IMG/VR virus record: IMGVR_UViG_3300042402_001861 | Coordinates: 64,001 to 128,000 of that record | Source: a virus | Strand: one strand, 5' to 3' | DNA: 64,000 bases | Part shown: positions 679 through 38,454 of the stretch, in pieces | Position numbering within the stretch: the first letter of the stretch is position 1 | Layout: each line of letters opens with the position of its first letter | The notes under the pieces: generated by a model | What the model saw: the letters and a program-made list of their open reading frames with translations, nothing else | What the model was told of the DNA's origin: nothing | Database searches by the model: none | Translations under genes and position numbers: made by a program

Positions 679-2457
679 ATGGCATTTCAACTTAGCCCCG
701 GTGTGTCAATCACAGAGAGAGACTTGACCACAATCATCCCTGCCGTTGCGACTACGAATGCAGGCTTTGCAGGTTACTTCCGGTGGGGTCCAGCCGATCA
801 GCGAGTGGTTGTGAGTGATGTTTCCAACCTCGTCCAACTCTACGGAACGCCCGACGACAACAACTTCAAGCATTGGTTCAGCGCCGCCAACTTCCTTGGC
901 TACGGCAACAACCTTCAGATCGTTCGTGCCTGCCACACCGGTGCGGCCAACGCAAGCCAGACTACGGGTGCTGCTTATCTTCCCAACAACGAGTCCGACT
1001 TTGCTGGTACTTCTACAGCCATCTACGGAATGTTTGCTGCCCGTTATCCGGGTCAACTTGGAAACAGCCTTGCCGTGGAAATCTGTGGAGCCGATGCTGG
1101 CGTGACTTCGTTCAATACTTGGACTTACTCGTCTGAGTTTGACGGTAAGCCCTCTACCTCGTTCTTTGCAGAAAATTCGCTTGGTCTGACTCAGGCCAAC
1201 GATGAATTCCACATGGTGGTTCTTGACCGCCTCGGTCGCTTCACGGGAGCCGTGAATACGGTTCTTGAGCGTTTCGCCGGTCTTTCGATTGATCCTGCCG
1301 CAGTTGCACAGGATGGAACCTCGATGTACTTCAAGGCAAAGATCAACAATGAATCAAAGTATCTTGTTGCTCTTGGGTCGATCACCACTCTTGATGGCAC
1401 AGCCTTCAAGATTAATGGTGTGACTGGTTCGGGTGTGACTGGCTGGAGTGGTTCAGGCACATGGGCCTACAATTCGACCGACTACACCTCCAACCGTTAT
1501 GACACGGGTTCGGGTGCAGGAGCCACCGGTGGCGTGTTCCGTGTAGAGTTCCAGGGTGGTACGGGAGAATGGGATTCGACCGGCAACCGACTCTTCACCG
1601 AAGGCTACGGATATCAGTTGTTTGCTGATGCCGATACTTCCAATGTCTCCCTGCTCATCGGTGGGCCTCTCACCGCCAGCACGGTAAACAGCCTAGTAAC
1701 GATTGCCAATGACCGCAAGGACTGCGTTGCCTTCGTATCTCCCGAGATCAACAATGCCTCGGTATCCGAAGCATCAAAGTTGGCAGCAGCCAAGACTTTC
1801 CGTGATGCTGTAGGAAACTCCTCCTACACGGTCATCGACACGGGCTACAAGTATCAGTACGATTCTTACAATGATACCTACCGCTATGTCCCGCTGAACG
1901 GAGACATCGCCGGTCTGTGCGTCCGTACCGACCTGACCAATGATCCTTGGTACAGCCCCGCCGGATTCAACCGTGGCGTGATTCGCAACACGATTCGTCT
2001 TGCTTATAACCCAAACAAGACCCACCGTGACGAACTTTATAGTTACGGCATCAACCCCGTGATTACCCTGCCCGGTGAGGGAACCCTTCTGTACGGCGAC
2101 AAGACCGCACAGACCAAGCCCTCGGCATTTGACCGCATCAATGTCCGTCGTCTGTTCATCGTCCTTGAGAAGGCCATCGCAACGGCTGCCAAGTACAGCC
2201 TATTCGAATTCAACGATGCCTTCACACGGTCGCAGTTCCGTTCGATGATCGAGCCGTTCCTCCGTGATGTTCAGAGCCGCCGTGGCATCACCGATTTCTT
2301 GGTGAAGTGCGACGAGTCCAACAACACTTCGGAGGTCATCGACAGCAACCGCTTCGTCGCTGACATCTTCGTCAAGCCTGCCCGTAGCATCAACTTCATC
2401 CAACTCAATTTCATCGCCACTAAGACCGGAGTATCGTTCACCGAAGTAGGTGGATGA
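679..2457 (+). CDS. gp18: Tail sheath protein
   Basis: MAFQLSPGVSITERDLT start, FRWGP, WYSPAGFNRG, AFDRINVRRLF, FIQLNFIATKTG; SD aggag; TAAATA 631-636. Confidence 0.98.
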   Translation: MAFQLSPGVSITERDLTTIIPAVATTNAGFAGYFRWGPADQRVVVSDVSNLVQLYGTPDDNNFKHWFSAANFLGYGNNLQIVRACHTGAANASQTTGAAYLPNNESDFAGTSTAIYGMFAARYPGQLGNSLAVEICGADAGVTSFNTWTYSSEFDGKPSTSFFAENSLGLTQANDEFHMVVLDRLGRFTGAVNTVLERFAGLSIDPAAVAQDGTSMYFKAKINNESKYLVALGSITTLDGTAFKINGVTGSGVTGWSGSGTWAYNSTDYTSNRYDTGSGAGATGGVFRVEFQGGTGEWDSTGNRLFTEGYGYQLFADADTSNVSLLIGGPLTASTVNSLVTIANDRKDCVAFVSPEINNASVSEASKLAAAKTFRDAVGNSSYTVIDTGYKYQYDSYNDTYRYVPLNGDIAGLCVRTDLTNDPWYSPAGFNRGVIRNTIRLAYNPNKTHRDELYSYGINPVITLPGEGTLLYGDKTAQTKPSAFDRINVRRLFIVLEKAIATAAKYSLFEFNDAFTRSQFRSMIEPFLRDVQSRRGITDFLVKCDESNNTSEVIDSNRFVADIFVKPARSINFIQLNFIATKTGVSFTEVGG

Positions 2458-2489: not shown

Positions 2490-3122
2490 ATGGCATATAG
2501 CCAATTCAGCCTAGACGCTTTCCGAGCGAACCTTATCAATGGTGGAGCGAGAGACAACCTTTATCTCGTCACGGGTTCATTCCCAAATGGCGGAAGCCGT
2601 TCGATCAATGCTGCGGCAGGAATTGCAGGAGCAATCTTCGGAACTGCTGCTGCCGGTGCCGTGTCTGCGGTTGGTGGGTTGGTAAACAATGGAAATGCAA
2701 ACGGTCAGATCACCTTCCTGACGAAGGGTGCCAAGATTCCGGCTGCCAAGATGTCCGAGGGGACAGCCAACTTCATGGGTCGTACCCTGAAGTTCCCGGC
2801 TGACAGGACTTTCGACAACTGGACAATCAATGTCTACAACGATGGTTCCTACAACCTTCGCAAGGCATTCGAGTCTTGGTCGAACCTGATCAACACCTAT
2901 GCAAGCAATGTTGGTCCCAACAACTTCAATTCCTTCTTGATGGACTGGTCCGTACAGCCCCTCACTCGCGAAGGAAACGCAATCTGCACCTACAAGTTCA
3001 TCGGCTGCTATCCTGCAACCGTTGGAGAAGTGAACCTGTCCTTCGAAGCAAAGAATTCGATTTCGGAGTTCCAAGTCGATCTGTCGTATCAATACTACGA
3101 ACTAGTCGGAACAACCACCTGA
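2490..3122 (+). CDS. gp19: Tail tube protein
   Basis: GGARDNLY, FMGRTLKFPADRTFDNWTINVYND, EFQVDLSYQY; follows gp18. Confidence 0.95.
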   Translation: MAYSQFSLDAFRANLINGGARDNLYLVTGSFPNGGSRSINAAAGIAGAIFGTAAAGAVSAVGGLVNNGNANGQITFLTKGAKIPAAKMSEGTANFMGRTLKFPADRTFDNWTINVYNDGSYNLRKAFESWSNLINTYASNVGPNNFNSFLMDWSVQPLTREGNAICTYKFIGCYPATVGEVNLSFEAKNSISEFQVDLSYQYYELVGTTT

Positions 3123-3151: not shown

Positions 3152-4651
3152 ATGGAGTTGTTTGGCTTCAAACTTGAACGGTCACCGAAGCAGAAGAGCG
3201 ATTTCAAGGCACTAAAGTCATTCGTAGTCCCAACTACGGATGACGGTGCCATTCCGGTGGAGGCTGGTGGCTTCTACGGGCAATATGTCGATCTTGACGG
3301 TTCTGTACGCAATGACTTTGAACTGGTTGCCAAGTATCGCGAAATGTCCATGGACCCGATCTGCGAGATCGCCGTCGATGACATCGTGAACGAGGCCATT
3401 GTGACCGAGCCGGGAAAGATGCCGATCAAGTTGGCATTCATAAACGACAAGACCATTTCGCCAAAAATCAAGAATAAGATTGAGGAAGAATTCAAGAATC
3501 TTCTTCGGTTGATGTCCTTTGATACAAAGGGGTATGAAGTCTTTCGCCGTTGGTATGTTGATGGAAAGATTTACTTTCACATCATCGTTGACGAGGAGAA
3601 GCCAGAGAAGGGAATCCTTGAACTTCGCTATGTTGATCCCCTGAACATTCAGAAGATCCGTGAGTTCAAGAAGGAAACCCGTCCTGATGGAACCAAGTTA
3701 ATCACGGGATTCCGCGATTTCTACCTCTACAACAAGGACAATCCCCGTGTGGGATCGGCGCAAGGTATCAAGATCAGCGACGATGCAATCGCATTCTGCT
3801 CTTCTGGTCTGTTTGACAGCCGCTATCGTCGCACCGTGGGATTCATGCATAAGGCAATCAAGCCCCTGAATCAGTTGCGAATGATGGAAGATGCCGTAGT
3901 CATCTATCGCATCTCCCGGGCACCTGAGCGCAGGATTTTCTACATCGATGTCGGAAACCTTCCCAAGACAAAGGCTGAAGCCTATGTCAAGGACATCATG
4001 AACCGATATCGCAACAAGTTGGTCTATGACGCAACCACAGGCGAGATTCGCGATGACAAGAAGTTCCTCTCCATGCTTGAGGACTATTGGCTTCCTCGTC
4101 GCGAAGGCAGCAAGGGAACCGAGATCAGCACCCTATCGGGAGCGCAGAACCTCGGTGAACTTGCAGATATCGTGTATTTCCAGAAGAAACTCTACCGTGC
4201 TTTGAATGTGCCCGTGAGTCGCTTGGAACAGGACAGGGGAATTGCCCTTGGTCGTTCGTCGGAAATAAACCGCGATGAACTCAAGTTTTCAAAGTTCGTG
4301 ACCCGTCTACGCAGCAAGTTCAACGAACTGATTTATGACTTGCTCCGAAAGCAGTTGCTGCTCAAGAATGTCATCACGCAGGACGAATGGCCGAACATCA
4401 AGGAGATCATGTTCCTTGACTACCTTAAGGATTCATACTATGTGGAGGCCAAGAACGCCGAACTCCGCAAGCAACGCAACGGCGAACTGAACGATGTTGA
4501 AAAATACATAGGTAAGTATTATTCTCACTATTGGGTCCGCACTCAGGTGCTTGGCATGACCGAAGGCGAGATTGCGGAAATGGACAAGCAGATGGCTCAA
4601 GAGAGGGACAGCGGGCTTTATACCCTGTCCAACGAACCAGGAATTGTATAA
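3152..4651 (+). CDS. gp20: Portal vertex protein
   Basis: MELFGF start, RRWYVDG, YRISRAPERRIFYIDVGNLPK, MLEDYWLPRREG. Confidence 0.98.
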   Translation: MELFGFKLERSPKQKSDFKALKSFVVPTTDDGAIPVEAGGFYGQYVDLDGSVRNDFELVAKYREMSMDPICEIAVDDIVNEAIVTEPGKMPIKLAFINDKTISPKIKNKIEEEFKNLLRLMSFDTKGYEVFRRWYVDGKIYFHIIVDEEKPEKGILELRYVDPLNIQKIREFKKETRPDGTKLITGFRDFYLYNKDNPRVGSAQGIKISDDAIAFCSSGLFDSRYRRTVGFMHKAIKPLNQLRMMEDAVVIYRISRAPERRIFYIDVGNLPKTKAEAYVKDIMNRYRNKLVYDATTGEIRDDKKFLSMLEDYWLPRREGSKGTEISTLSGAQNLGELADIVYFQKKLYRALNVPVSRLEQDRGIALGRSSEINRDELKFSKFVTRLRSKFNELIYDLLRKQLLLKNVITQDEWPNIKEIMFLDYLKDSYYVEAKNAELRKQRNGELNDVEKYIGKYYSHYWVRTQVLGMTEGEIAEMDKQMAQERDSGLYTLSNEPGIV

Positions 4652-4660
4652 GGAACGCAA

Positions 4661-5779
4661 ATGGAAATCAATCATCTTTCAAACGCTCTTGATTCGGTCA
4701 ACGAAAAGGATGCTGTTTCCTTCAAGTCCGCCCTTTCTCAGCATTTGAACAACCGTCTTTTCACCGCATTGCAGGCAAGAAAGGCTGAAGTTGCCAAGGA
4801 GATGATTGGTGAAAAGTCCGTTGTTTCTGAAGCCAATGTAATCGCTCCTTCTGCTCCCCCTACACAAGGATTTGCAAAGAAGCCCGATGCATTCAAGGTC
4901 GATCCCGCCAAGGCAAAAATCGAAATGCAGAAAGCAAAGTCGATGGTCGTGGCCAATAAGGCAAAGATGGCGGCGGTCGATGTCAAGAAGAATGTCCTTG
5001 GTCCCAAGGAACTTGAAACCATGCAGAAGCAGATCGCTGCTGTTGCTGACAATAGCGTTGACATCGGATCGCTAAAGCCTGTTCCCGGCGGCTTTGAAGT
5101 AAAGAAGGCTGCTGACGGAGGGCTTGATCCAAATCAGGAAAAGGAATACCTGATGAAGACCTTCAATCACAACGGGAAAGTTGTCGAATTGAAGCAAGTC
5201 GGCCTTGGGTTCTCCCGTCCGATCCGTGCATACATCGACGGTGTTCGTTGGAATTTCTTCCCGAGCATGGGCAAGGCCATGGAAATGACTAAGGAATACA
5301 TCGAGATGGAAAGTGGCGCTGCAAAGAAGGAAGAGGTGCAGCAAGATGGGCAATTGGCCGAGAAGGTCGATCTTGACGGCAGAACGAAGATTGTTCGTGA
5401 TACCGTTGCGAGAATCGAACAGTATCGCAAGTTGCGTTCGGAGAAGACAAAGCCTGCTGTGGAAAACAAGGAAAACAAGTTTGCCGGAATCTATGATGAC
5501 GGCAGCGGTAAGGGAGCCTTCATTCCGCAACCAATCGACACGGGCAAGCAACATCCGTTCTTCAGAAAGACCGTGACCGAAGGTGTTCTTGACGAATTCA
5601 AGTCGATGTTTAAGAAGGAAAACATCACGGTTCGCGAGGGCGACAAGGAAGAGTACGAGCGTTTCTTCAAGGTAGCCATGAAGAAGTTTGGAATCTCAAG
5701 CCCCACCGATCTCAAGACCCCCGAGCAAAAGAAGAAGTTCTTCGATTATGTCAAGAAGAACTACAAGGGAAACGATTGA
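4661..5779 (+). CDS. Prohead core protein, gp67 position, strongly extended
   Basis: Position after gp20; N-term resembles gp67-like core proteins; K/E-rich with several xxE-type putative gp21 sites. Confidence 0.6.
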   Translation: MEINHLSNALDSVNEKDAVSFKSALSQHLNNRLFTALQARKAEVAKEMIGEKSVVSEANVIAPSAPPTQGFAKKPDAFKVDPAKAKIEMQKAKSMVVANKAKMAAVDVKKNVLGPKELETMQKQIAAVADNSVDIGSLKPVPGGFEVKKAADGGLDPNQEKEYLMKTFNHNGKVVELKQVGLGFSRPIRAYIDGVRWNFFPSMGKAMEMTKEYIEMESGAAKKEEVQQDGQLAEKVDLDGRTKIVRDTVARIEQYRKLRSEKTKPAVENKENKFAGIYDDGSGKGAFIPQPIDTGKQHPFFRKTVTEGVLDEFKSMFKKENITVREGDKEEYERFFKVAMKKFGISSPTDLKTPEQKKKFFDYVKKNYKGND

Positions 5780-6632: not shown

Positions 6633-7280
6633 ATGAAACTGTTCTGCGACCTAAACGAAAGCATCGAAGTCCTGACCGAGGAGACTGCTCCCGGACAGAA
6701 GAACTATTACATCGAAGGCGTGTTCCTGCAAGGGGACATCACCAACCGCAACAAGCGCCGCTATCCGATTGAAACCTTGATGAAGGAAGTAAAGCGGTAC
6801 AACGAGCAGTTTGTCAAGCAGAAGCGGGCTTTCGGTGAGTTGGGCCACCCCGAGGGTCCGACCATCAATCTTGAGAGAGTCAGCCACATGATCACCGAAC
6901 TTCGCTGTGAAGGCAAGAACTTCATGGGCAAGGCCAAGATCATGGACACCCCATACGGCAAGATTGTAAAAAACCTCATTGATGAGGGTGCAAAGTTGGG
7001 TGTTTCTAGCCGTGGAATGGGTTCCCTAGAAGAGCGCAATGGAGTCAATGTCGTAAAGGATGACTTCCAACTTGCAACAGCAGCAGACATCGTTGCCGAT
7101 CCATCGGCTCCCGAGGCATTTGTCCGTGGGATCATGGAAGGCAAGGAATGGGTATGGGAAAGCGGACGGTTGGTCGAAAAGGACATAGTACAGATCAAGA
7201 AGGACATTTTGAAAACCAACTCCCGCAAGTTGGAAGAAGCCAAGATAAACGCATTCAATAAGTTCCTCCGGGGACTTTAA
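6633..7280 (+). CDS. gp21: Prohead protease
   Basis: YIEGVFLQ, GELGHP, GVSSRGMGSL, DIVADPSAPEAFV. Confidence 0.98.
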   Translation: MKLFCDLNESIEVLTEETAPGQKNYYIEGVFLQGDITNRNKRRYPIETLMKEVKRYNEQFVKQKRAFGELGHPEGPTINLERVSHMITELRCEGKNFMGKAKIMDTPYGKIVKNLIDEGAKLGVSSRGMGSLEERNGVNVVKDDFQLATAADIVADPSAPEAFVRGIMEGKEWVWESGRLVEKDIVQIKKDILKTNSRKLEEAKINAFNKFLRGL

Positions 7281-7326: not shown

Positions 7327-8454
7327 ATGGACTCATTCAAGAACAACGAAGTAGAGGAAATCCTCGAAGAGGAAATCCTCGAAACCGAAGAGCAGACCGA
7401 CGAGGCCACCAACGAGGCTGACGAAGCCATCGAAGAGGCCACAGATTCCGCATCCAAGCAGAAGTCCAATGTGGCTGCTGCCAAGCAAATGGGTCAGGGT
7501 GCTGCCGTTGGTGCTGCTTCCCTCCCCAAGGAGTCCCCCAAGTACAAGGGACTCTACAAGGACGGCACAGGCAAGGGTGCAATCATCCCTGAGCCAATCG
7601 ACACCGATGATGTCGAGGGTGATGCCGATGTTGCTTCCAACGAGAAGCAAATGAAGAATGTGGACAAGAAGCGTATGGCCAAGGAAGATGTTGCCGTACA
7701 CATGGATGCCATGTTCAACGGCGAAGAACTCAGCGAAGAGTTCAAGACCAAGGCTTCCACAATCTTCGAAACCGCCGTCAACGAGCGCATCGAAGCCATT
7801 GCCGAGGAACTTGAGACTGAATTCGAGACTCGTCTTCTGTCCGCACAGGAGCAGATCAAGAACGAGTTGACCGAGCAGTTGGATTCCTACCTCTCCTATG
7901 TAATCGAAGAGTGGATGGAAGAGAACCGCCTCGCCGTGGAGAAGGGCATTCGCAACGAAGTCACCGAGCAGTTCATCGAAGGTCTTCGTTCGCTCTTCCT
8001 ACAGCACAACATCGAAGTTCCTGCTTCCAAGGTTGATCTTGTCGATGAGATGGCCGAGAAGGTCGAAGAACTCACCGGCAAACTCAACGAAGAAATTCAG
8101 AAGAATGTCGAGATGTCCAAGACTGTCGGTCAGTTGCGCCGCAGCGACATCCTTGACGAACAATGCGATGGTCTTGCCGATACGCAGAAGGAGCGTTTCA
8201 AGAAGTTGGCCGAGGGCGTAGCCTTCGAAAGCGAAGATGATTACCGCAGCAAGTTGGAAATCATCCGCGAGTCCTACTTCGGCGTTGGCTCGACCGAGAC
8301 AGACTCGGAGGGCGGCGAAGAGACAGTTGCTGAGGCTTCGGATGAAGTTGGCGACAGCATCGACGGTGATGATGTTGCTGCCGAGCCAAAGGAAACCATC
8401 AGCGAGTCGATGAGTGTGTACGCAAAGGCACTCTCGCGACTCAATCGTAAGTGA
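7327..8454 (+). CDS. gp22: Prohead scaffolding protein
   Basis: Acidic coiled coil, LSEEFKTKASTIFETAV, YLSYVIEEWMEEN; TATAAATA 7287-7294. Confidence 0.95.
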   Translation: MDSFKNNEVEEILEEEILETEEQTDEATNEADEAIEEATDSASKQKSNVAAAKQMGQGAAVGAASLPKESPKYKGLYKDGTGKGAIIPEPIDTDDVEGDADVASNEKQMKNVDKKRMAKEDVAVHMDAMFNGEELSEEFKTKASTIFETAVNERIEAIAEELETEFETRLLSAQEQIKNELTEQLDSYLSYVIEEWMEENRLAVEKGIRNEVTEQFIEGLRSLFLQHNIEVPASKVDLVDEMAEKVEELTGKLNEEIQKNVEMSKTVGQLRRSDILDEQCDGLADTQKERFKKLAEGVAFESEDDYRSKLEIIRESYFGVGSTETDSEGGEETVAEASDEVGDSIDGDDVAAEPKETISESMSVYAKALSRLNRK

Positions 8455-8539: not shown

Positions 8540-9910
8540 ATGGACTTGACAATTTCCGAAGCACTACAGAAGAAGTGGAAGGCCATCGTTGAACACGCTG
8601 ACCTCCCTGAGATCAAGGATTCGTGGCGCAAGACCGTCACGACTCAACTCCTTGAGAATCAGGAGCAGTACCTCAAGGAAGCCGCTCCCACCAACCTCTC
8701 TAACAACCTCCCCGGCGATTCGACCGGCAATGTGGCTAAGTGGGATCCGATCCTCATCAGCCTCGTTCGCCGTGCAATGCCGAACCTGATCGCCTATGAC
8801 ATCTGCGGCGTTCAGCCGATGAGCGGCCCGACTGGGCTTATCTTCGCCCTCCGCAGCCGTTACAACAGCCAGACTGGTGCCGAGGCTCTGTTCCAAGAGG
8901 CCGACACTCGCTTTGGTGGTTCGGGTGGCACACCGTCCTACACCGGCGCTGGTTACACCGGTGGCCTCACGCAGGGTCCGGGCGTTGATCCCTTCTTCGG
9001 TGCTGCTGATGCCTCGCTGGCTGATGGCGTTGCCGATTCGTCGGCTGTCAGCCGTGCCATGACCACCCTCATGGGTGAGGCTCTTGGTGATGCTGCTAAC
9101 AATGCCTTCGCTCAGATGGCATTCAGCATCGAGAAGACCACGGTAACTGCCAAGACTCGTGCCCTGAAGGCCGAGTACACGATGGAACTCGCCCAAGACC
9201 TGAAGGCTATTCACGGTCTTGATGCCGAGACAGAACTCGCCAACATTCTTTCGAGCGAGATTCTGGCTGAGATCAACCGCGAGGTTGTTCGCACCATCTA
9301 CCGTAACGCCAAGTTGGGCGCTAAGGCTGGCACGACACAGACCCGTGGAGTGTTCGATCTCAATGTCGATTCCAACGGTCGTTGGTCGGTTGAGAAGTTC
9401 AAGGGTCTGCTGTTCCAGATTGAGCGTGAGTGCAACCAGATCGCCAAGGAAACTCGTCGTGGCAAGGGCAACTTCGTCCTCTGCTCGTCGGATGTTGCTT
9501 CGGCTCTGGCCATGTCGGGCGTTCTTGACTATGCTCCGGCTCTCAGCACCAACCTTCAGGTGGACGATACGGGCAACACCTTCGCCGGTGTTCTCAACGG
9601 TCGCCTCCGTGTTTACATCGATCCGTATTACTCATCGACACTCGCTTCGGACTTCTTCTGTGTCGGCTATAAGGGTTCCAGCCCATACGATGCTGGTATG
9701 TTCTACTGCCCCTATGTGCCGCTACAGATGGTCCGTGCAGTCGGTGAGCAGTCTTTCCAGCCGAAGATCGGCTTCAAGACTCGCTACGGCATGGTCAACA
9801 ACCCCTTCATCATTGGCAACGACAACTCGCCAATCGCTGATGTGGACAATGCCAACGCTGCTCGTAGCAACCAGTACTACCGTATCGTCAAGGTCAACAA
9901 CCTCTTCTGA
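8540..9910 (+). CDS. gp23: Major capsid protein
   Basis: LVRRAMPNLIAYDICGVQPMSGPTGLIFA, RALKAEYTMELAQDLKAIHGLDAE, FQPKIGFKTRYG. Confidence 0.99.
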   Translation: MDLTISEALQKKWKAIVEHADLPEIKDSWRKTVTTQLLENQEQYLKEAAPTNLSNNLPGDSTGNVAKWDPILISLVRRAMPNLIAYDICGVQPMSGPTGLIFALRSRYNSQTGAEALFQEADTRFGGSGGTPSYTGAGYTGGLTQGPGVDPFFGAADASLADGVADSSAVSRAMTTLMGEALGDAANNAFAQMAFSIEKTTVTAKTRALKAEYTMELAQDLKAIHGLDAETELANILSSEILAEINREVVRTIYRNAKLGAKAGTTQTRGVFDLNVDSNGRWSVEKFKGLLFQIERECNQIAKETRRGKGNFVLCSSDVASALAMSGVLDYAPALSTNLQVDDTGNTFAGVLNGRLRVYIDPYYSSTLASDFFCVGYKGSSPYDAGMFYCPYVPLQMVRAVGEQSFQPKIGFKTRYGMVNNPFIIGNDNSPIADVDNANAARSNQYYRIVKVNNLF

Positions 9911-10002: not shown

Positions 10003-10551
10003 ATGCACTACGAAATACCCGATGAAGGTCCGTTGGGTGCTGCTTGTTCCACTCCGACGAATACCAATCTAACCGCTCCGACGAACTACAAGTTCAGCAT
10101 CAAGCGGATACCAAACATGGTGTACTTCTGCACGGGTGTATCGTTGCCGGGTTGGTCTAATCCCACGATCAATGTGCCAACAGGCTTTCCTGGTGGCAGG
10201 AATACCCTGAAGGCAAAGAGCGAATCTATCAGTCACGGGGATGCAACCTTTCGCTTTCTCGTCAACGAAGACTATTCAAACTATGACGAGGTGGCCAAGT
10301 GGTTCCGTCAATGCGTTGGACTCAATGACTACAGCCAAGTTGCATGGCGAAACTGGATGTCCGAGGAAGGATATCTGCTTGTGTTGAGCAATCGCAAGAA
10401 TCCCGTCTTCCGCATCACCTTCCGTGGACTCTTCCCCACAGGAATAAGTGACCTGAATTACAAGGCAAACGAAACCGAGAATACACCATTGGTTGCAACG
10501 GTGACCATGAACTTCACCTATTACACCTACGAATCTCTACTCAATCCATGA
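10003..10551 (+). CDS. Tail completion/terminator protein, gp3-like paralog 1
   Basis: YKFSIKRIPNMVYFCTGVSLPG, FLVNEDYSNY, FRGLFPT; position after gp23; TAAATA 9984-9989. Confidence 0.8.
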   Translation: MHYEIPDEGPLGAACSTPTNTNLTAPTNYKFSIKRIPNMVYFCTGVSLPGWSNPTINVPTGFPGGRNTLKAKSESISHGDATFRFLVNEDYSNYDEVAKWFRQCVGLNDYSQVAWRNWMSEEGYLLVLSNRKNPVFRITFRGLFPTGISDLNYKANETENTPLVATVTMNFTYYTYESLLNP

Positions 10552-11120
10552 GCATACTTGACGAAAAGGGTCTGACAGGCAAGGATTACGGAATCGCAGA
10601 TCGTGATTCTTTCGGTGCTGCATGTTCCACGCCGCTGAACACGAACACAACGATCCCGACAAATTTTCTGTTCATGTGTCGGAAGATACCGTCCTTTACC
10701 TACTTCATTCAGGACTTTTCCCTGCCCGAAACAAGCAAGGAATCTATTGCGTCTGACTTCATGTTCGGACCTTCCGTGAAGTTCCCCAATGCCACTATTG
10801 GTTATGGCACCCTAACAATCAAGTTTATCATTAATGAGGATTTCTCAAACTATCACTCCATAGTCAAGTGGATGCTTGAGAATACTGGTTACACGGAATT
10901 CGTTGCTGACCAGAAGTACAACGAAGGAGCGAACGAGGAAGGAACTCTGATTCTCCTATCCAACAAGAAGAATCCGATTCGAAGAATCAATTTCGAAGGT
11001 CTGATTCCAACAGAACTCTCTGGCATAGACTTTGCTAGCGATGTCACCGATATCAACACGCTGACCGCAACATTGAAATTTGCCGTGTCGGCATTCAGCA
11101 TCAAGACCGTTTCTCCTTGA
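10548..11120 (+). CDS. Tail completion/terminator protein, gp3-like paralog 2
   Basis: Same motif layout as the upstream gene (FIINEDFSNY, FEGLIPTELS); ATGA overlap. Confidence 0.75.
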   Translation: MSILDEKGLTGKDYGIADRDSFGAACSTPLNTNTTIPTNFLFMCRKIPSFTYFIQDFSLPETSKESIASDFMFGPSVKFPNATIGYGTLTIKFIINEDFSNYHSIVKWMLENTGYTEFVADQKYNEGANEEGTLILLSNKKNPIRRINFEGLIPTELSGIDFASDVTDINTLTATLKFAVSAFSIKTVSP

Positions 11121-15983: not shown

Positions 15984-17711
15984 ATGATTAGATTTGAAAA
16001 ACTCCGATGGAAGAATTTGCTCTCTACCGGACAGTATTTCACGGAAATCGACCTGACAAAGGCCAACACGACATTGATTTGTGGAGAGAACGGCGCAGGG
16101 AAATCCACGATGCTGGATGCCCTGTGCTTCGTTCTTTTTGGAAAGCCTTATCGCAACATCAACCTTCCGCAGTTGGTCAACAGCATCAATCAGAAGGATT
16201 CCGTGGTGGAGATTGAATTCACCATCGGCAAGGATTCCTACAAGGTGATCCGTGGTCAGGCACCGAAGTTGTTTGAAGTACACAAGAACGGCAAGTTGAT
16301 AGATCAGGAAGCAAAGAGCAAGGACTATCAACGAATGTTCGAAGAGCAGATTCTTCGAATGAACTACAAGTCGTTCTGTCAGGTTGTCATCCTTGGTTCG
16401 GCCAACTATGTTCCGTTCATGCGGCTTGTGGCTGCGGAGCGACGATCCATCGTTGAGACTATCCTTGACATCAACATCTTCAGCACGATGAATGTGATCC
16501 TCAAGGGAAAGGTTTCGCAGAACCGAGAGGAACTTGTCGAACTTGAGGGCAAGATTGCCGTCCTGAAGGAGCGTATCTCCTTGCAGAAGAAGTACATGGA
16601 GGAGAAGACCAAGGACGAGAAGGACATCGTTGAGAAGTATCAGACCGAGATCAACGAGGCATTGGAGCGAATCGAAACTATCAAGAAAGAACTTTCCGAT
16701 CATCAGCAGCATCTGTCAGAATACCTTGAGAAGATCGATGACAAGCCCCTGATCGAAAGCAACAAGGCGAACCTTGATTCGTTGCAGAAGCAGTTGACAA
16801 CAAAGATCAAGAGCCTGAACACAAGCATCGACTTCTACGAAAAGAACGACACTTGTCCAACCTGTACGCAGTCCATCGGGAGCGATTTCAAGGAATCCGC
16901 CAAGAGCGGACTTGCATCGAAGAAGAGGGAAGTGGAGACTGCCATGGAAGAGATTGGCAAGCAGATGACCAAGGTGGCAGAACGGATGGAGGAATTGCGG
17001 GAAACCGTCCTTGCAATGAAGGAGATTGAGTCGGACATCAATGACTGCAAGAATGAACTGTCCATGCAGAAGAAGTTCATCGACAAGACCAAGCAGAAAC
17101 TTGAGGAAGCCAAGGCTCCCAAGACCGATGATTCGAAGGAAAAGGAGGAGTTTGCCAAGAGCATTGCCGATGAGGCAGAACTTGTATCCTCACGCAACGA
17201 GTTGGTGGACACTCAGTACTACTATGGCGTGGCTTCAACCCTCCTGAAGGACTCGGGCATCAAGAGCAGGATCATCAAGCATTACATTCCCGTCATCAAC
17301 AAGGTAATCAATCAGTACCTGACGCAGATGGGCCTGTTCGTGAATTTCAATCTTGACGAGGAGTTCAACGAAACGATCCTGTCTCGCCATCGCGATACCT
17401 TCACCTATGCATCCTTCAGCGAGGGAGAGAAGAAGAAGATCGATCTTGCCTTGCTGTTTGCATGGAGGGCAATTGCACAGATGAAGAATTCGGTGTCAAC
17501 AAACCTGTTGATCCTTGACGAGGTGCTTGACGGAAGTCTTGATGATGCAGCCTCCGAGTCCTTCCTTGACTTGCTGAAGGGATTGGACAACGACACGAAT
17601 GTGTTCGTGATAAGCCACAAGCCCAAGGAACTACTTGAGTCCAAGTTCAGCAGGCTACTTACCTTCGTCAAGCGAAACAACTTCAGCAGTATCGCAAGCA
17701 CGAAGGCTTGA
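15984..17711 (+). CDS. gp46: Recombination ATPase, Rad50/SbcC-like
   Basis: GENGAGKS, CPTC zinc hook, FSEGEK, LILDEVLD. Confidence 0.97.
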   Translation: MIRFEKLRWKNLLSTGQYFTEIDLTKANTTLICGENGAGKSTMLDALCFVLFGKPYRNINLPQLVNSINQKDSVVEIEFTIGKDSYKVIRGQAPKLFEVHKNGKLIDQEAKSKDYQRMFEEQILRMNYKSFCQVVILGSANYVPFMRLVAAERRSIVETILDINIFSTMNVILKGKVSQNREELVELEGKIAVLKERISLQKKYMEEKTKDEKDIVEKYQTEINEALERIETIKKELSDHQQHLSEYLEKIDDKPLIESNKANLDSLQKQLTTKIKSLNTSIDFYEKNDTCPTCTQSIGSDFKESAKSGLASKKREVETAMEEIGKQMTKVAERMEELRETVLAMKEIESDINDCKNELSMQKKFIDKTKQKLEEAKAPKTDDSKEKEEFAKSIADEAELVSSRNELVDTQYYYGVASTLLKDSGIKSRIIKHYIPVINKVINQYLTQMGLFVNFNLDEEFNETILSRHRDTFTYASFSEGEKKKIDLALLFAWRAIAQMKNSVSTNLLILDEVLDGSLDDAASESFLDLLKGLDNDTNVFVISHKPKELLESKFSRLLTFVKRNNFSSIASTKA

Positions 17712-17714
17712 TCG

Positions 17715-20189
17715 TCAGTCCGACAACTTGACAGTAATCATGTACTGCTTCTTGGGTGATACCTTGAGCATTGCCGCTGCCTTCTGTTGTGCAGCGAAAG
17801 AAGTTGGAGCCTGAACCGAAATCTTCTTTCCCGAATAGAATGCGATGTAATTGTACATCTTCTCTTCGGTGACTTTGGTTTCTTCCTTCTTTGAAGATTT
17901 GCCTACCTTTTGTCCCTTACCGATCTTCTTCAACATCTTTTCTCTTTTGGCATCTGCACGAAGACCGGCTTGAACCTTGGCCTGAGCCTCGCGGGAAGTC
18001 TCAAATCCGCCACCCCAACTTCCTGCCTCGTCAAGTTCTACTTCTTCCTTCTTGATCTTCGAACCATACTTCTTGCCGAAGGAAATCATGTCCATTGCGG
18101 CGGCAAGATTGTCCTTGGCATCCTGAAGGCTCATGCCATTTTCCCTCAGTTTCTTGGGATCGTTGATGATCGACTTGAGCCAAACGACGGAATTCTTTAA
18201 TTGCTTTTCTGTCGGCTGTGCAAATCCCTCGGCTACGACCATCTGATTGTCGTTGATTGCCTTGGCGATCTTCTTGCCGGAGATGCGTCCCGATGGCTTC
18301 TTGCCGGGTGCGCTCAGGCGATACATCGGCTCACCCATGTAGGAAGTGTCATACATCAGGGTGTAGACGGGACCAACCTCTAGGTTTGCAAATGCCACGG
18401 GTCGGTTCAACTTGATCATACGGACACCCTTGAGGACTGCCTTGTAGTCCTCAACCACTTCGACTTCTTCATTCTCCTCAACGCTTTCGCCAAAGAAAGT
18501 CTCAAAGTGATCGTTGACGAGATTGGCGGTGTTGAACCCCATGAACCTCTTCTCAACCCCGTGCTTGTTGAGAATGGCAGTAACGGATGCAAGACGCATG
18601 ACTCCTTGAGCAACACCACCACCCTTCTGCTGCTTCATCAGAGACTTGAGTTCTGCAATTGCAGCCTTGGGAATCGAATACATGAAGTTTTCGATTGCTC
18701 TCTTGGTTGCACTCTCAGAAACTTCGACTTCTTCTTTCTTGAGCATCTTGGTTGGATTCGCCTTGAAGAGTTCTGATGCTTTGAACTGTTTTTGTTTATT
18801 GTCGGGAAGCACAAGAGTGAACAATCCACCTACCACATTCTTGGATGCGGTATAACCAATCAGTTGCCCTCTCTTGTTCATTCCAGGAATCCATAGCATC
18901 TCGCCCTTCTTGAATGGCTTTGGGAATGAATCCTTTGCTTCTGCCACTTCGACTTCTTCCTTGTGAACCTTCTGCTTCGGAACTGTGATACTTGCAGGCT
19001 CACCGACATCAACCACATAGCCACCGCCATGTTGCTGTGCCTTGCCTGTGCCGCCATCATCGAAGCGAACAATCTTGCCGCTGACCATCTTGCCCTTGTG
19101 GGGAACCTTTACCTTGTCGCCTGCCTTGAACTGTTCGGTAACCTCAACATCAACCTCAAAGCCCTCTGCCTTCACATACTTGATATGCCTTGTGATATCC
19201 CATTTTTCAACTACAGGCTTTCCACCTTCGCCTTCGTCTGTGACAATGTAGCAAACGGTTCCCTTGACATTCGCTGCCCGCCAGTCTCCCTTGCTCGTAT
19301 AATCCTTTCGAGAAACACAAACTTCGTGAGGATAGCCATGACTCTTGCCCCATGAGTCCTGCGAGATGCGATATTCAAATGCTTGCTTGCCCGTCTTCTC
19401 GTAGAATCTGCCAAGGACTTTTTCATCGGGATGTGCGTATGCTTCATCGACTTCTTCCTTCACGGGATTGCCTGTCATCGCATGTTTACGAGCAGCCCGT
19501 TCGGTTCGATAAATCTTCACAACCTTGCCGTCCTTGGTGACTACTGCCTTGCCCTTGGGGTGGTGAAGATTGGTGCGAAGTCCGTTGTCCTTTGCCTCTT
19601 CGATCTCACCGTCTTCGATGATTTCCTCTTCCTCTACCTCTTCCTTCTTGCCCTGCTTCTTTGCAAGGATCTTTGCCTTCACCCCTTGATTTACTTGCTT
19701 GAGTTGGTCGGGAGTCAACTTTGTCTTTTCGGTCAGGGTCTGCTCACGCATTTCCCAAGCCTCTTCGACGGTTTCGATGATGACCCATCCGCTCTTGATG
19801 TAACTCTGCACATCCTTAGCGGCAATGACATCAAGGTCTTGGTCATCCTTGCCCCACATGATTCGGCTTCCCGGCATCCCCTGCTTCTTCTTGCGAAGTC
19901 CGCTGAACTGCTTGACGAAGAACATCGGAACCTTGTAGTGCATCAGACGGGCAACCGTGGGGTTCACGGTCTTGGTCTGTCCCGGCGTGGCTACAGCCAC
20001 GGCTTCACGCATGATCTCCATCCCACGGGAGTCCTTGATAATCTGTGCAATGGCTGCATCGTCAGCACACTCAACGATGACCATTCCGTTGGCGCTGCCG
20101 ATTACCTTACCGGCGGCCTGCTTGCGGATCGTGTTTGCGGCAAAGTTAGCGAGGGAAAAGGTCGGAAACTTGAAAGTCAAACGATGCAT
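17715..20189 (-). CDS. 824-aa modular basic protein with repeated acidic linkers, candidate internal head polyprotein
   Basis: About ten KEEVE(V/L)xE-type linkers between short basic modules; late promoter 20223-20228; SD aggag. Confidence 0.7.
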   Translation of the reverse strand: MHRLTFKFPTFSLANFAANTIRKQAAGKVIGSANGMVIVECADDAAIAQIIKDSRGMEIMREAVAVATPGQTKTVNPTVARLMHYKVPMFFVKQFSGLRKKKQGMPGSRIMWGKDDQDLDVIAAKDVQSYIKSGWVIIETVEEAWEMREQTLTEKTKLTPDQLKQVNQGVKAKILAKKQGKKEEVEEEEIIEDGEIEEAKDNGLRTNLHHPKGKAVVTKDGKVVKIYRTERAARKHAMTGNPVKEEVDEAYAHPDEKVLGRFYEKTGKQAFEYRISQDSWGKSHGYPHEVCVSRKDYTSKGDWRAANVKGTVCYIVTDEGEGGKPVVEKWDITRHIKYVKAEGFEVDVEVTEQFKAGDKVKVPHKGKMVSGKIVRFDDGGTGKAQQHGGGYVVDVGEPASITVPKQKVHKEEVEVAEAKDSFPKPFKKGEMLWIPGMNKRGQLIGYTASKNVVGGLFTLVLPDNKQKQFKASELFKANPTKMLKKEEVEVSESATKRAIENFMYSIPKAAIAELKSLMKQQKGGGVAQGVMRLASVTAILNKHGVEKRFMGFNTANLVNDHFETFFGESVEENEEVEVVEDYKAVLKGVRMIKLNRPVAFANLEVGPVYTLMYDTSYMGEPMYRLSAPGKKPSGRISGKKIAKAINDNQMVVAEGFAQPTEKQLKNSVVWLKSIINDPKKLRENGMSLQDAKDNLAAAMDMISFGKKYGSKIKKEEVELDEAGSWGGGFETSREAQAKVQAGLRADAKREKMLKKIGKGQKVGKSSKKEETKVTEEKMYNYIAFYSGKKISVQAPTSFAAQQKAAAMLKVSPKKQYMITVKLSD

Positions 20190-20242
20190 AGGATCTCCTA
20201 TAGGGATGTAAAGACGCTCCCATATTTAGGAAATCCAGCGGA

Positions 20243-22050: not shown

Positions 22051-23112
22051 TTACTCCTTCGGTGCGGCCTGAATGCCGTACTTGCTACGAGCAGTATCGC
22101 CTTCGTGATCGTTGTAGATTTTCTCAAAGTCACGCACAACAGAACTTGGTGGGACATTCTGTGCGATCAACTTTTGAATCGAATCGATGTCGCTTCCAAG
22201 GTAATGTGCCAACGACTTCCGTAGGCTGTCATCGGAAACCGGGGAGGACACACCGGCATTCTTGATCTTGAGTCCTACGAAACTCTTGATGACTCGCTGA
22301 GGAATCGTTGGACGAGGGATGTTCTTTCCCTTGGCATCCTTGACATCGATGCCAATCATGCTCGTAACAAGTGTCTTGCCGTCAAGAGGCTTGCCGTTCT
22401 TGTCGGAATAGAACACTTGTCCTTGACCGCCGCCAAGCACAAGATGGACTTCACCGTTGAGATTTGGAGGATATGCACCCTTGGCGACTTCACCCATGGT
22501 CTTGCCGACACCTTCGTGTGTCAGAAGCAGAATGTGGTCTGGAACACGGCGTGGGCGGTTGTCGTTGTTGACCATTGCCACTCGCCAGTTGGTGAGAACC
22601 CAGATGATGTGCAGATTGTTCTTTTGGTAGCCTGCGGAAATTAGGGTATCGGTGAGATTCTTGATCTCTTCGACATTCTTGAGGGTACGGTCAAAGATGA
22701 TGTTTGGCAACTGACCACCGTAAGCCTTTACCCCGATCTTCTGCTTGGCGTTGGCAATGATATGCGGAAGGAGCATGGTGGCAATGTGCTTCTGCTCAAT
22801 CGGCCAGTCCTTCAAGGCAAGGTGAATCTTTGAGACATCCTCGGGATTCCTGAAGTTGATGTCCTTGAACTGCACGAACTTGCTTTCCTTACCGGCAGCA
22901 AAGTGCAACTTTCCGATCTTTACGACCGCTTCCTTGAACGCATCGGGATCAACGACCTTGTAGTCGAATCCGTTCATCAGATTGGAGATTGCGTAACCCT
23001 TGCCACTACCGGCACCGCCTGCCATGAATACCACTTGACCGCTTCTTGCCCCGTTGTTGGGCATGATCAACTTTTCCTCAAGATAGTCTTTGAGTCCTTG
23101 AAACTCTTTCAT
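22051..23112 (-). CDS. P-loop kinase, zeta-toxin/AAA_33-like
   Basis: VFMAGGAGSGKG, DPDAFK, IIFDRT; late promoter 23131-23136. Confidence 0.8.
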   Translation of the reverse strand: MKEFQGLKDYLEEKLIMPNNGARSGQVVFMAGGAGSGKGYAISNLMNGFDYKVVDPDAFKEAVVKIGKLHFAAGKESKFVQFKDINFRNPEDVSKIHLALKDWPIEQKHIATMLLPHIIANAKQKIGVKAYGGQLPNIIFDRTLKNVEEIKNLTDTLISAGYQKNNLHIIWVLTNWRVAMVNNDNRPRRVPDHILLLTHEGVGKTMGEVAKGAYPPNLNGEVHLVLGGGQGQVFYSDKNGKPLDGKTLVTSMIGIDVKDAKGKNIPRPTIPQRVIKSFVGLKIKNAGVSSPVSDDSLRKSLAHYLGSDIDSIQKLIAQNVPPSSVVRDFEKIYNDHEGDTARSKYGIQAAPKE

Positions 23113-36829: not shown

Positions 36830-38215
36830 TCATTCCTCGTTGACGGGCTTTCGCGGATCAAATGGCTTCTTGCCCATCATCAGGCCGCTGTATATGTTGT
36901 TGTAGACATTCTGCATCTTGGTGCCATCGGTTCGCTTCATGTTGGCGATTGCCTTGTTGAATTCCTGAACGGTAGGAACCTTGCCCTGCGCCATTCGGGA
37001 ATTGTACTCGCTGATGATGTTTCTGACATCCTGCAAGAGCGAAACGGTTCGCGACAGGAACTTCTCCCTGCGCTTGGGTTCCTCAAGGAAGAACTTTGCC
37101 GTGCTGTATGCCTGCCACGAAACGAATATGAGGCAGAAGTTGCCCACCGCACCCATGTTGTACTTGTCGAGCCCGAACTTGGTCGCATGTTCCCTTGCCC
37201 AAGGCTCCGCGATTGCATCGGACATCTTCCGATACAGTTCCGCGACCACCACCTCGGCAACCTCCTTGCACCTTGCGGTGGGAGTCATGGTGTTGAAGTT
37301 TGAATTTGCGGCCAATGCCTTTGCGGCAGAGCGTTCATTGGTGGCAGCGATCAGGAACGACTGCACGGCATTCTCAACGATCTCAGCCGCACTCTGAAAG
37401 TATGCATTCCACTCCGCATCGCTTGTGTAGTAGTCCTTCTTGAAGACATCCTTGCTGTCATATGACGCATCGATTCCACGCTTGATGTTGCCGGGATGGC
37501 TTGACTTGGACTTGTACCGAAAGTCATCGAACAGGTGGATGAATTCGTGGATGTAGATGTCAGCCGTGTTGGACAATTCGGCCTCGAATTGGTCAAGCCA
37601 CTTGTTCAGGGGCCGTGCAAGTGCCTGAGCCGACTTTCCCTCAATCTTGCCACGAAGAGTCTGTATGATGGCATGGTGGAAGGGCTTGTCGGGCTTGAAC
37701 TGCAATGTCTCCATGTGGTGAATCTGAACCTCGGGATTGTTTCGTCCCATCTTTCCCGAATGGTAGGTTCCCTTGGCATTGCCGCTGCTGAACATGGACC
37801 GACCCGTGGTGCTTCGAAGCGTTGTCTGCAACAGGACGATGTTTCCCTTGTCAACCAACTGACGATACTGCTTCATCGTGATGTAGGAAGGCAGCACCAT
37901 CTGCGACTCGTCCCTGATGCACATGGCGATCACCACATCCCATCCGTTCTTTGTGGCAAGGACAAAGTGCGAGGAAGGCTGGTTCAGCGTGAAGGCATGG
38001 ATCAGGTTGTTGGCAATGGTATGGTCGCTGTCCATGGTGTAGTGGAAGACTCTGTTCTCTGCCATGTCCTTGACGAAGGCGGCGACCTGCCTGCGGAGTA
38101 TGACCATCAGGTTCTTCTTGAATCTTTCAAATGACTTCCTTGCCGCATCCCGTGTCGGGCGGTCAAGTTCACGCTCAAGCAGCAGGGCTTCCATCATCTC
38201 TTCGAAAGTCTTCAT
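36830..38215 (-). CDS. HEXXH zinc-peptidase-like protein with internal-protein-type leader
   Basis: YIHEFIHLFD, downstream EWNAYF; N-term MKTFEEMMEALLLE; ATGA coupling. Confidence 0.7.
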   Translation of the reverse strand: MKTFEEMMEALLLERELDRPTRDAARKSFERFKKNLMVILRRQVAAFVKDMAENRVFHYTMDSDHTIANNLIHAFTLNQPSSHFVLATKNGWDVVIAMCIRDESQMVLPSYITMKQYRQLVDKGNIVLLQTTLRSTTGRSMFSSGNAKGTYHSGKMGRNNPEVQIHHMETLQFKPDKPFHHAIIQTLRGKIEGKSAQALARPLNKWLDQFEAELSNTADIYIHEFIHLFDDFRYKSKSSHPGNIKRGIDASYDSKDVFKKDYYTSDAEWNAYFQSAAEIVENAVQSFLIAATNERSAAKALAANSNFNTMTPTARCKEVAEVVVAELYRKMSDAIAEPWAREHATKFGLDKYNMGAVGNFCLIFVSWQAYSTAKFFLEEPKRREKFLSRTVSLLQDVRNIISEYNSRMAQGKVPTVQEFNKAIANMKRTDGTKMQNVYNNIYSGLMMGKKPFDPRKPVNEE

Positions 38216-38454
38216 CGCTTGCCCTTTTGCCCTATTCCGTACTTTCTGAAAATCTCGTCCCGCTTGGCCTGAAGTTCTCTCTGCCGTGGAGAACCCGCCA
38301 TGGCACGAAAGATCAACTTGGTCAGTCGATTGGCTTCCCGACGATCCTCGGGGGACATGACAGCCCAAGGATCCTTGAAACCCTTGAATGAATGGGAAGA
38401 GGAAGCCGACGAAGCCGACGAAGCCTCAAGGATGTGCTGCCGAAAACTCTGCAT
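38212..38454 (-). CDS. Small basic protein with internal-protein-type leader
   Basis: MQSFRQHILE-A; TAAATA 38463-38468. Confidence 0.7.
   Translation of the reverse strand: MQSFRQHILEASSASSASSSHSFKGFKDPWAVMSPEDRREANRLTKLIFRAMAGSPRQRELQAKRDEIFRKYGIGQKGKR

Follow-up and report, generated by a model that had tools for sequence, protein, structure and literature searches.

What a T4-like phage gains from one long, strongly basic protein that is divided by nearly uniform acidic linkers is the question raised by the gene P0001, located on the minus strand (17715–20189) of a 64,000-nucleotide stretch of viral DNA (positions 64,001 to 128,000 of IMG/VR record IMGVR_UViG_3300042402_001861; hereafter, the window). 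The window is part of a 177,364-bp record, 98% complete, of an uncultured T4-like phage, and P0001 is an open reading frame (ORF) of 824 residues (91.6 kDa, pI 9.4), rich in Lys (109 Lys versus 30 Arg). The results described below reveal that P0001 belongs to a highly mosaic protein family, in which near-identical wild phages swap, move, add, and delete modules exactly at the linkers. With moderate confidence, we read P0001 from its sequence as a polyprotein of internal head proteins, which would be packaged into the head and processed by the gp21-type prohead protease of the phage, its linkers doubling as recombination joints.

The ten junctions quoted by a first-pass annotation of this DNA were all found in the ORF, namely (arrow, proposed cut) IMRE↓AV at residue 62, EIEE↓AK at 198, EVDE↓AY at 249, VTE↓QF at 352, VAE↓AK at 417, VSE↓SA at 492, VVE↓DY at 580, VAE↓GF at 654, LDE↓AG at 721, and KVTE↓E at 775. 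An eleventh, LTE↓K at residue 154, is seen from homologues, because the relative P0142 has P0001-type residues 1–62 directly joined to the mini-module starting at 155. The chain is composed of about twelve pieces of 44–103 residues (Table 1), so that the count of about ten peptides in the annotation has to be raised; its description of small Lys-rich modules between acidic linkers holds, the module cores being basic (pI 8.5–10.8) and each carrying an acidic C-terminal tail. The linkers end in [V/L/I/M]-x-E and follow the consensus K-E-E-V-E-[V/L/I]-x-E, then a small residue. They are more than a chance feature, because the strict form EE[VIL][EDQ][VLIM].E occurs four times in P0001 and in none of the other 591 ORFs of the genome (six-frame, at least 60 residues), and because the end-points of BLAST alignments cluster at the proposed sites (against 120 homologues, 54% within 8 residues of a joint versus 21% expected).

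The predicted structure indicates that P0001 consists of independently folding domains and not of a single fold. In the AlphaFold2 (AF2) model of the whole protein (predicted template-modelling score, pTM, 0.28), separate folded islands are connected by disordered linkers; the confident islands comprise residues 1–63, 90–140, 493–568, 581–653, 659–706, and 779–824, with a weaker one at 214–240 (predicted local distance difference test, pLDDT, 61–68), and each proposed linker lies within or beside a stretch with pLDDT <50. Prediction of residues 250–417 on a better alignment (mean pLDDT 80) yielded two confident beta domains, separated by a disordered linker at 342–351 (pLDDT <50). A single continuous fold was accordingly rejected, on the grounds of the low pTM and the shuffled module order in relatives. 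A decoration protein of the Hoc type with Ig-like domains was also rejected, because the modules lack Ig-like folds and the chain is basic, its joints being of the protease type, as was an internal translation start for each module, as the joints contain neither stops nor start contexts.

The model of residues 1–69 resembles CutA-type proteins (VIA Z 8.5), reflecting a generic ferredoxin-like fold, and that of module 12 resembles PaaB (Z 6.2), again a generic fold. Of the two modules called KOW/SH3-like in the first-pass annotation, that at residues 353–417 is indeed modeled as an SH3/Tudor-like barrel, with Z values of 5.9–7.8 to Tudor, chromo, CAP-Gly, and NusG-KOW barrels, a range that may mean a common arrangement only; the KOW family (PF00467) itself gave no hit in P0001 at E ≤ 1, the only one being Ribosomal_L21e below the cut-off (E 0.063). 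No Pfam family reached its gathering threshold anywhere in P0001. Among PHROGs, residues 256–338 match phrog_23785 (E 6.8e-10), residues 106–164 give a weak match, and the last module, which the annotation had likened to a stand-alone phage gene, matches the stand-alone family phrog_19202 only weakly (E 1.5e-3). Foldseek comparison of the whole model with PDB and BFVD returned only meaningless long alignments with high rmsd, and that of the first domain of residues 250–417 with PDB returned no clear match; the ESM Atlas contained no usable match by features and, by structure, only strings of SH3-like domains. These models suggest nucleic-acid or peptide binding by the SH3-like and small basic domains, and nothing more specific.

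The modular nature of P0001 is most directly seen in two close relatives, L040 (protein P0004, 751 residues) and L041 (P0003, 787 residues), in which the polyprotein gene lies in a syntenic neighbourhood with flanks 91–99.6% identical, the shared order being a 353-residue P-loop gene, four small genes, the polyprotein gene, the convergent gp46, and gp47. Break-points were determined by blastn of both loci against the window and are given in residue coordinates of P0001. L040 is 95.6% identical up to 248.3, has no match from 248.3 to 483.7, and is 96.3% identical from 483.7 to 771.7; after this block, at the end of module 11, about 226 extra nucleotides are inserted, and 90.8% identity holds from 767 onward. 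L041 is 96.0% identical up to 202.3, retains an island of 90.9% identity at 347.0–419.7, and from 483.7 on is 99.6% identical, a match that continues deep into gp46 and gp47. All seven DNA break-points fall in linkers (190–198, 244–249, 343–352, 409–417, 484–492 twice, and 767–775), and every junction in L040 and L041 retains aliphatic-x-Glu at the residue level. Module 7 (residues 418–492), which follows the SH3-like barrel in P0001, precedes the last module in P0004. The cassette that could gain modules, as imagined in the first-pass annotation, is thus observed in close relatives, where modules have been acquired, lost, or relocated precisely at the linkers. The 12-mer GAAGAAGTCGAA is identical in three of the five EEVE linkers of P0001 (background probability 0.048 each), which hints, from a small sample, that module exchange may be helped by microhomology of the linker DNA; in both L040 and L041, nucleotide identity to the window begins or ends inside linkers of the GAAGAAGTCGAAGT type. 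The 14-mer GAAGAAGTCGAAGT itself is identical in three linkers (18713–18740, 18938–18965, and 18449–18476).

The same mosaicism extends over the whole family. Metagenomic relatives include 168 proteins of similar length and 127 shorter ones, with 358 representatives of 50%-identity clusters, and BLAST relatives carry the same modules in differing orders. For the architecture count, 306 non-redundant proteins were cut at linker-like sites and the linkers were trimmed before clustering, as single-linkage clustering with the linkers kept over-merged the families. The resulting 1137 segments formed 285 clusters (68 with three or more members) in 252 distinct architectures, and comparison of module order across the homologues gave no alignment as a single continuous fold. 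Position is restricted for some modules: module 1 came first in all 37 relatives that carry it and is separable from module 2 in P0142, a second N-terminal type came first in 36 of 42, and two C-terminal-only types came last in 34/34 and 20/20, while the other modules are mobile between positions. The most widespread, the SH3-like module (132 copies), has 36 upstream and 47 downstream neighbour families; module 10 is found in P0196 behind KKEEVEE↓GFAQP. Several IMG/VR loci contain two or three family genes in tandem, and the domain LPD29 (PF18847) was detected only in the relatives P0027, P0030, P0058, P0099, and P0261. The family search found no proteins longer than 1442 residues, which is weak evidence. 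Among cultured phages, tblastn of P0001 against 50,697 GenBank phage records gave nothing at 1e-5; at E ≤ 1, one module only was found, in the Sinorhizobium phiM12 group, with hits 33–37% identical to residues 250–352. This homologue of module 5, phiM12 gene 312 (L003:3974-4255), is a leaderless stand-alone protein of 93 residues encoded among small genes near RNA ligase and MutT.

Modules were also found singly or as pairs, preceded by short leaders whose final triplet, directly before the module, is aliphatic-x-Glu ([LIV]xE); examples are ...NTIKNLNE↓QFKDGD, ...NSQPIKE↓AYKAGD, and MSRKTFEQFKQEIRE↓A. The source genome contains three further instances of family modules outside P0001. P0322 (50795–51271, plus strand) has the leader MGFNDNWDGVKRIDLNE↓ and then a 45-residue module that is joined through the linker KKESVEEVDE↓A to a helical one; P0323 (54390–54860, plus strand) consists of the family's alternative N-terminal module on its own, behind the leader ...NQITNLTE↓AP. 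The third is the C-terminal module of a 372-residue gene (4661–5779, plus strand) that lies between the portal gene and the protease gene; this module is homologous to the one with which the family protein P0225 starts. In a related 168-kb phage (L039), the same module is a separate gene of 157 residues starting MSEENINE↓KVGIDGRT, and here it is fused behind ...DGQLAE↓KVDLDGRT. The 372-residue protein is itself multi-modular (sites VVSE↓A, QLAE↓K, and VTE↓G), and it shares with the scaffold gp22 the motif G-[IL]-Y-x-D-G-x-G-K-G-A-x-I-P-x-P-I-D-T, which is kept in both genes of the relative G001 and may be a common docking element. Another gene, 22.7 kb past the window end (150733–153918 of the genome, plus strand), encodes a 1061-residue protein with an MKTFSE leader, an N-terminal nucleotidyltransferase-like domain, and then KEEVIVEE↓T; the domain is homologous to residues 3–181 of P0220, which also has a P0001-type module, and family modules therefore combine with enzymes.

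The residues at the junctions form a grammar. Statistics were anchored on conserved module starts and are hence independent of the site definition; positions before and after the proposed cut are numbered P3, P2, P1, and P1'. Before the SH3-like module (93 unique contexts), P1 is Glu in 84 and Asp in 0, P3 is Val in 47, Ile in 30, Leu in 5, Met in 2, and Phe in 5, and P2 is variable, including 8 Asp. Before the helical module (cluster M1), P1 is Glu and P3 hydrophobic in 39 of 39 contexts, with Ser or Gly at P1', and before the WGGGF module (M6; 39 contexts), P1 is Glu in 33 and Asp in 1, with Leu, Ile, Val, or Met at P3 in 32. Asp is thus frequent at P2 and essentially missing at P1. Aliphatic-x-Glu also ends N-terminal leaders that are not acidic (...NPQPI.E↓A and NDNWDG.KR....L.E↓Q). 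The gp23 of the source phage contains L-K-E↓A at the position that corresponds to the T4 gp23 cut. In T4, processing depends on residues 8 and 10 of the capsid-targeting sequence (CTS), which correspond to P3 and P1, and is blocked by Asp at position 10 (PMC9026906). The junction grammar of the family matches this processing rule of T4 gp21.

A link of the family to the phage head is further suggested by genome context. Peptidase_S77 is encoded in each of the three near-complete family-bearing records tested; it is missing from two records, both about 50% complete. The genome of the window has seven ORFs with a strict CTS-like leader, M-[KRQ]-[STP]-[FL]-...-[LIVMF]-x-E (e.g., MKSFRGHITE and MKSFIAFISE; Table 1), which suggests a large set of head-targeted proteins, and relatives with P0001-type modules start in a T4-CTS-like manner (MRFTEFISE, ...FKSFRSELTE, and MSENKRFKSFRSELTE). 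The sequence CTAAATA occurs 15 times in the window versus 3.7 expected; since it is thus enriched and is also found upstream of gp18 (630) and gp23 (8472), it is the presumed late-promoter core of this phage, and P0001, with such a box 33 nt before its ATG, would be expressed late. TAAATA precedes the start by 28–74 nt in 17 of the 32 IMG/VR loci that contain the SH3-like module. The inversion against gp46 described in the first-pass annotation is confirmed, the two genes being convergent (gp46, SbcC-like, 15984–17711) with 3 nt between their stop codons; the late promoter that it assigned to P0001 is present as the box, whose role we infer from this distribution.

On the favoured reading, P0001 would be a precursor, expressed late, in which about twelve small and basic domains fold independently and each joint is an exposed acidic linker. 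The precursor would be incorporated in the prohead core, for which the position-restricted N-terminal module may be the targeting element. The Peptidase_S77 protease of the phage would then cut after each linker Glu, and the resulting Lys-rich peptides of 5–12 kDa would remain with the DNA like the T4 internal proteins, which are basic, 8–20 kDa in size, contact DNA through Lys, are present at about 300 copies each, and co-purify with gp22 (PMC3012670, PMC9026906); they would probably be ejected into the host. As recombination joints, the linkers would allow single modules to be exchanged, moved, added, or deleted with the frame and the processing sites kept. We propose more tentatively, giving it somewhat less than even chances, that the linker is dual-purpose in this full sense, its peptide being a prohead-protease cut site and its DNA an in-frame recombination joint, in a combinatorial system of cargo cassettes. 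A small protein of any kind, once placed between two linkers, could then enter, change position in, or drop out of the packaged chain and would still be set free as its own peptide; this would be a phage counterpart of exon shuffling and a natural vehicle for multi-protein delivery.

Several observations weigh against cleavage and packaging in the head. The N-terminus of P0001 (MHRLTFKFPTF...) does not resemble a CTS, which in T4 comprises about 10–20 residues of the MKTYQEFIAE type, and is occupied instead by a 62-residue ferredoxin-like domain, within whose last predicted strand the 62/63 site falls. P3 is mostly Val versus the Leu/Ile described for T4 sites, and the CTS-like leaders of the source genome, of the form MK[ST]F...[LI]xE, themselves have Leu or Ile, not Val, at this position. 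Cutting after Glu would leave on each peptide a nine-residue acidic tail with no apparent purpose, and linker conservation could partly reflect a role as DNA recombination joint, not as protease site. Finally, the GenBank phages lack the P0001 gene, and phiM12 gene 312, the sole module homologue in a cultured phage, is leaderless and lies in an early-looking region.

If the linkers were only flexible, soluble spacers and in-frame recombination joints, the 92-kDa chain could act uncleaved, within the virion or the cell, as beads on a string in the style of polyvalent proteins, its SH3-like and basic domains providing multivalent binding of, e.g., DNA or host factors. The location of the break-points in linkers and the 12-mer shared by three of five of them agree with this, as selection on nucleotides could explain part of the conservation; LPD29 is a domain of polyvalent proteins, and packaging without processing is described for some of these, e.g., the virion RNA polymerase of N4 (PMC5512222). 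However, a plain spacer or pure DNA joint needs no Glu at P1 and would not be expected to exclude Asp there yet use it freely at P2. Aliphatic-x-Glu closes also the non-acidic leaders of stand-alone modules, and linker codons vary between family genes, so that selection acts at the amino-acid level; we regard the uncleaved chain as unlikely.

The fusion of a family module to the 372-residue gene draws attention to the prohead core, because this gene lies between the portal and protease genes, an interval occupied in T4 by gp67 and gp68. P0001 might be an accessory core or scaffold protein like gp22, gp67, and gp68, whose pieces would exit the capsid before DNA packaging, so that none would reach the host. 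The many gp21 cuts in these T4 core proteins (PMC5694885) agree with that, but scaffolds are conserved and mostly helical or acidic, whereas the family is hyper-variable with cargo-like folded basic domains, and the P0001 gene lies outside the head gene cluster; we find this improbable. Processing by a host or another phage protease, in the cytoplasm or after injection, to give late-acting small proteins, seems to us very improbable: the Val-rich P3, differing from the Leu or Ile of the CTS-like leaders, would fit it, and the tie of P0001 to gp21 is an indirect one, but nothing points to another protease that would recognise aliphatic-x-Glu, Peptidase_S77 accompanies the family, and some relatives have T4-CTS-like leaders.

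It is worth comparing P0001 with known systems, as it shares some defining features of both T4 CTS cargo and polyvalent proteins and fails others. Like the gp21-processed T4 proteins IPI, IPII, IPIII, and Alt, it comprises small, basic, Lys-rich units in a genome with a T4-type prohead protease, with aliphatic-x-Glu before the mature part and no Asp at P1 (for P0001, at the sequence level). Hyper-variable gene content between related phages and, in relatives and stand-alone modules, short leaders of the cleavable type are also common to both, and late expression, here predicted from a promoter-like box, would be. Unlike the T4 proteins, with one gene and one leader each, P0001 combines its units in one chain with a site at every joint, differs at P3, and begins with a folded domain where the T4 proteins have a CTS of 10 residues; the two share no sequence similarity. 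Polyvalent proteins have 2 to 15 domains per polypeptide in highly variable architectures (Iyer et al. 2017, PMC5512222) and resemble P0001 in their many unrelated domains, extreme mosaicism, predicted delivery with DNA, and the LPD29 of five relatives. However, P0001 contains neither a Pfam-recognisable effector or enzyme domain of the kinds that mark polyvalent proteins, such as MuF, ART, MPTase, or LPD domains, nor a built-in peptidase, its modules are tiny (44–103 residues), and a uniform protease-site-like linker is not a described feature of polyvalent proteins.

The head and ejection proteins of phiKZ and SPN3US are cut by a gp21-related protease after Glu at a three-residue motif, with multiple sites per substrate, as proposed for P0001, and have long N-terminal propeptides thought to target the prohead (PMC5694885, PMC10052503). 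In contrast, cleavage at their sites (S/A/G-x-E, A-x-E) mostly trims propeptides off a single mature protein, whereas cleavage at those of P0001 would separate a string of independent modules; the P3 preference differs, and there is no sequence relationship. The T4 core proteins are conserved, serve in assembly, and mostly exit the head as fragments, unlike the variable, folded basic domains of the P0001 family. RNA-virus polyproteins (e.g., of picornaviruses) provide an analogy only, with one ORF, a viral protease, and a short conserved site per junction; they are not homologous, the products of P0001 would be accessory cargo, and its module order is not fixed. We found no paper on a phage cargo polyprotein with uniform joints of the prohead-protease type in a literature search that was incomplete.

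The window places P0001 among genes typical of T4-like phages (Table 1), a set to which a UvsW-like helicase, gp47, and gp46 also belong; the capsid protein reaches no more than 63% identity with those of cultured phages, the nearest being Pelagibacter phages Mosig and Melnitz and cyanophages. The P-loop gene that adjoins the polyprotein locus in L040 lies here at 22051–23112 (minus strand); its 353-residue product has an N-terminal Zeta_toxin-like P-loop (PF06414, E 1.7e-7; phrog_5268), and the gene is also present in L001 at a different distance. Two adjacent paralogues of about 185 residues each (10003–10551 and 10548–11120, plus strand) have GAACSTP.NTN in common, the first being weakly similar to gp19 (tail tube; Pfam E 0.0066, below the cut-off).

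Table 1. Positions in the window of P0001, its modules, and associated features
Feature	Position	Strand	Remarks
Sheath (gp18)	679-2457		
gp19-like tube	2490-3122		
Portal	3152-4651		
gp21-type prohead protease	6633-7280	+	Candidate processing enzyme; PF03420 Peptidase_S77, E 2.5e-36
Scaffold gp22	7327-8454	+	
Major capsid protein gp23	8540-9910		
P0001, mosaic polyprotein (whole gene)	17715-20189	-	ORF and translation
Module 12 (aa 776-824 and stop)	17715-17864	-	YNYIAFY module; weak phrog_19202 match; pLDDT 81-90
Module 11 (aa 722-775)	17865-18026	-	WGGGF module, cluster M6; ends KVTE↓E
Module 10 (aa 655-721)	18027-18227	-	Helical; ends KKEEVELDE↓A
Module 9 (aa 581-654)	18228-18449	-	Alpha/beta; ends MVVAE↓G
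Module 8 (aa 493-580)	18450-18713	-	Helical; ends EEVEVVE↓D; AF2 pLDDT 82-85; cluster M1
Module 7 (aa 418-492)	18714-18938	-	Second small beta module, four strands, pLDDT ~50-56; ends KKEEVEVSE↓S
Module 6 (aa 353-417)	18939-19133	-	SH3/Tudor-like barrel (model); ends EEVEVAE↓A; AF2 pLDDT 83-88
Module 5 (aa 250-352)	19134-19442	-	Beta-rich, phrog_23785 (E 6.8e-10); ends VEVTE↓Q; AF2 pLDDT >90
Module 4 (aa 199-249)	19443-19595	-	Ends EEVDE↓A; cluster M11
Mini-module 3 (aa 155-198)	19596-19727	-	K-rich helix and long acidic tail, ends EIEE↓A; cluster M17, internal 14/14
Module 2 (aa 63-154)	19728-20003	-	Ends LTE↓K; weak phrog_1175 match; stand-alone relatives P0204, P0212
Module 1 (aa 1-62)	20004-20189	-	Ferredoxin-like beta-alpha-beta-beta-alpha-beta (model); ends IMRE↓A; AF2 pLDDT 82-89
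AGGAG ribosome-binding site of P0001	20195-20199	-	Between CTAAATA box and ATG
CTAAATA late-promoter-like box	20223-20229	-	33 nt before P0001 ATG
ORFs with CTS-like leader	32070; 36830-38215 (-); 38212-38454 (-); 48914; 49651; 52005-53282 (-); 53321		

If the linkers are cut in the prohead, the specificity of gp21-type proteases of non-model phages, including Val at P3, would be defined, and P0001 would represent a natural design for packaging several foreign proteins in T4-like capsids from one construct. Tailed phages would then fill the capsid with many different small proteins made as one polyprotein from a single gene, a strategy so far characteristic of RNA viruses, and would diversify this load by cassette exchange. 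The family holds at least 68 recurrent module families; the repertoire of injected phage proteins would accordingly be larger, with early anti-defence or take-over factors as its likely members.

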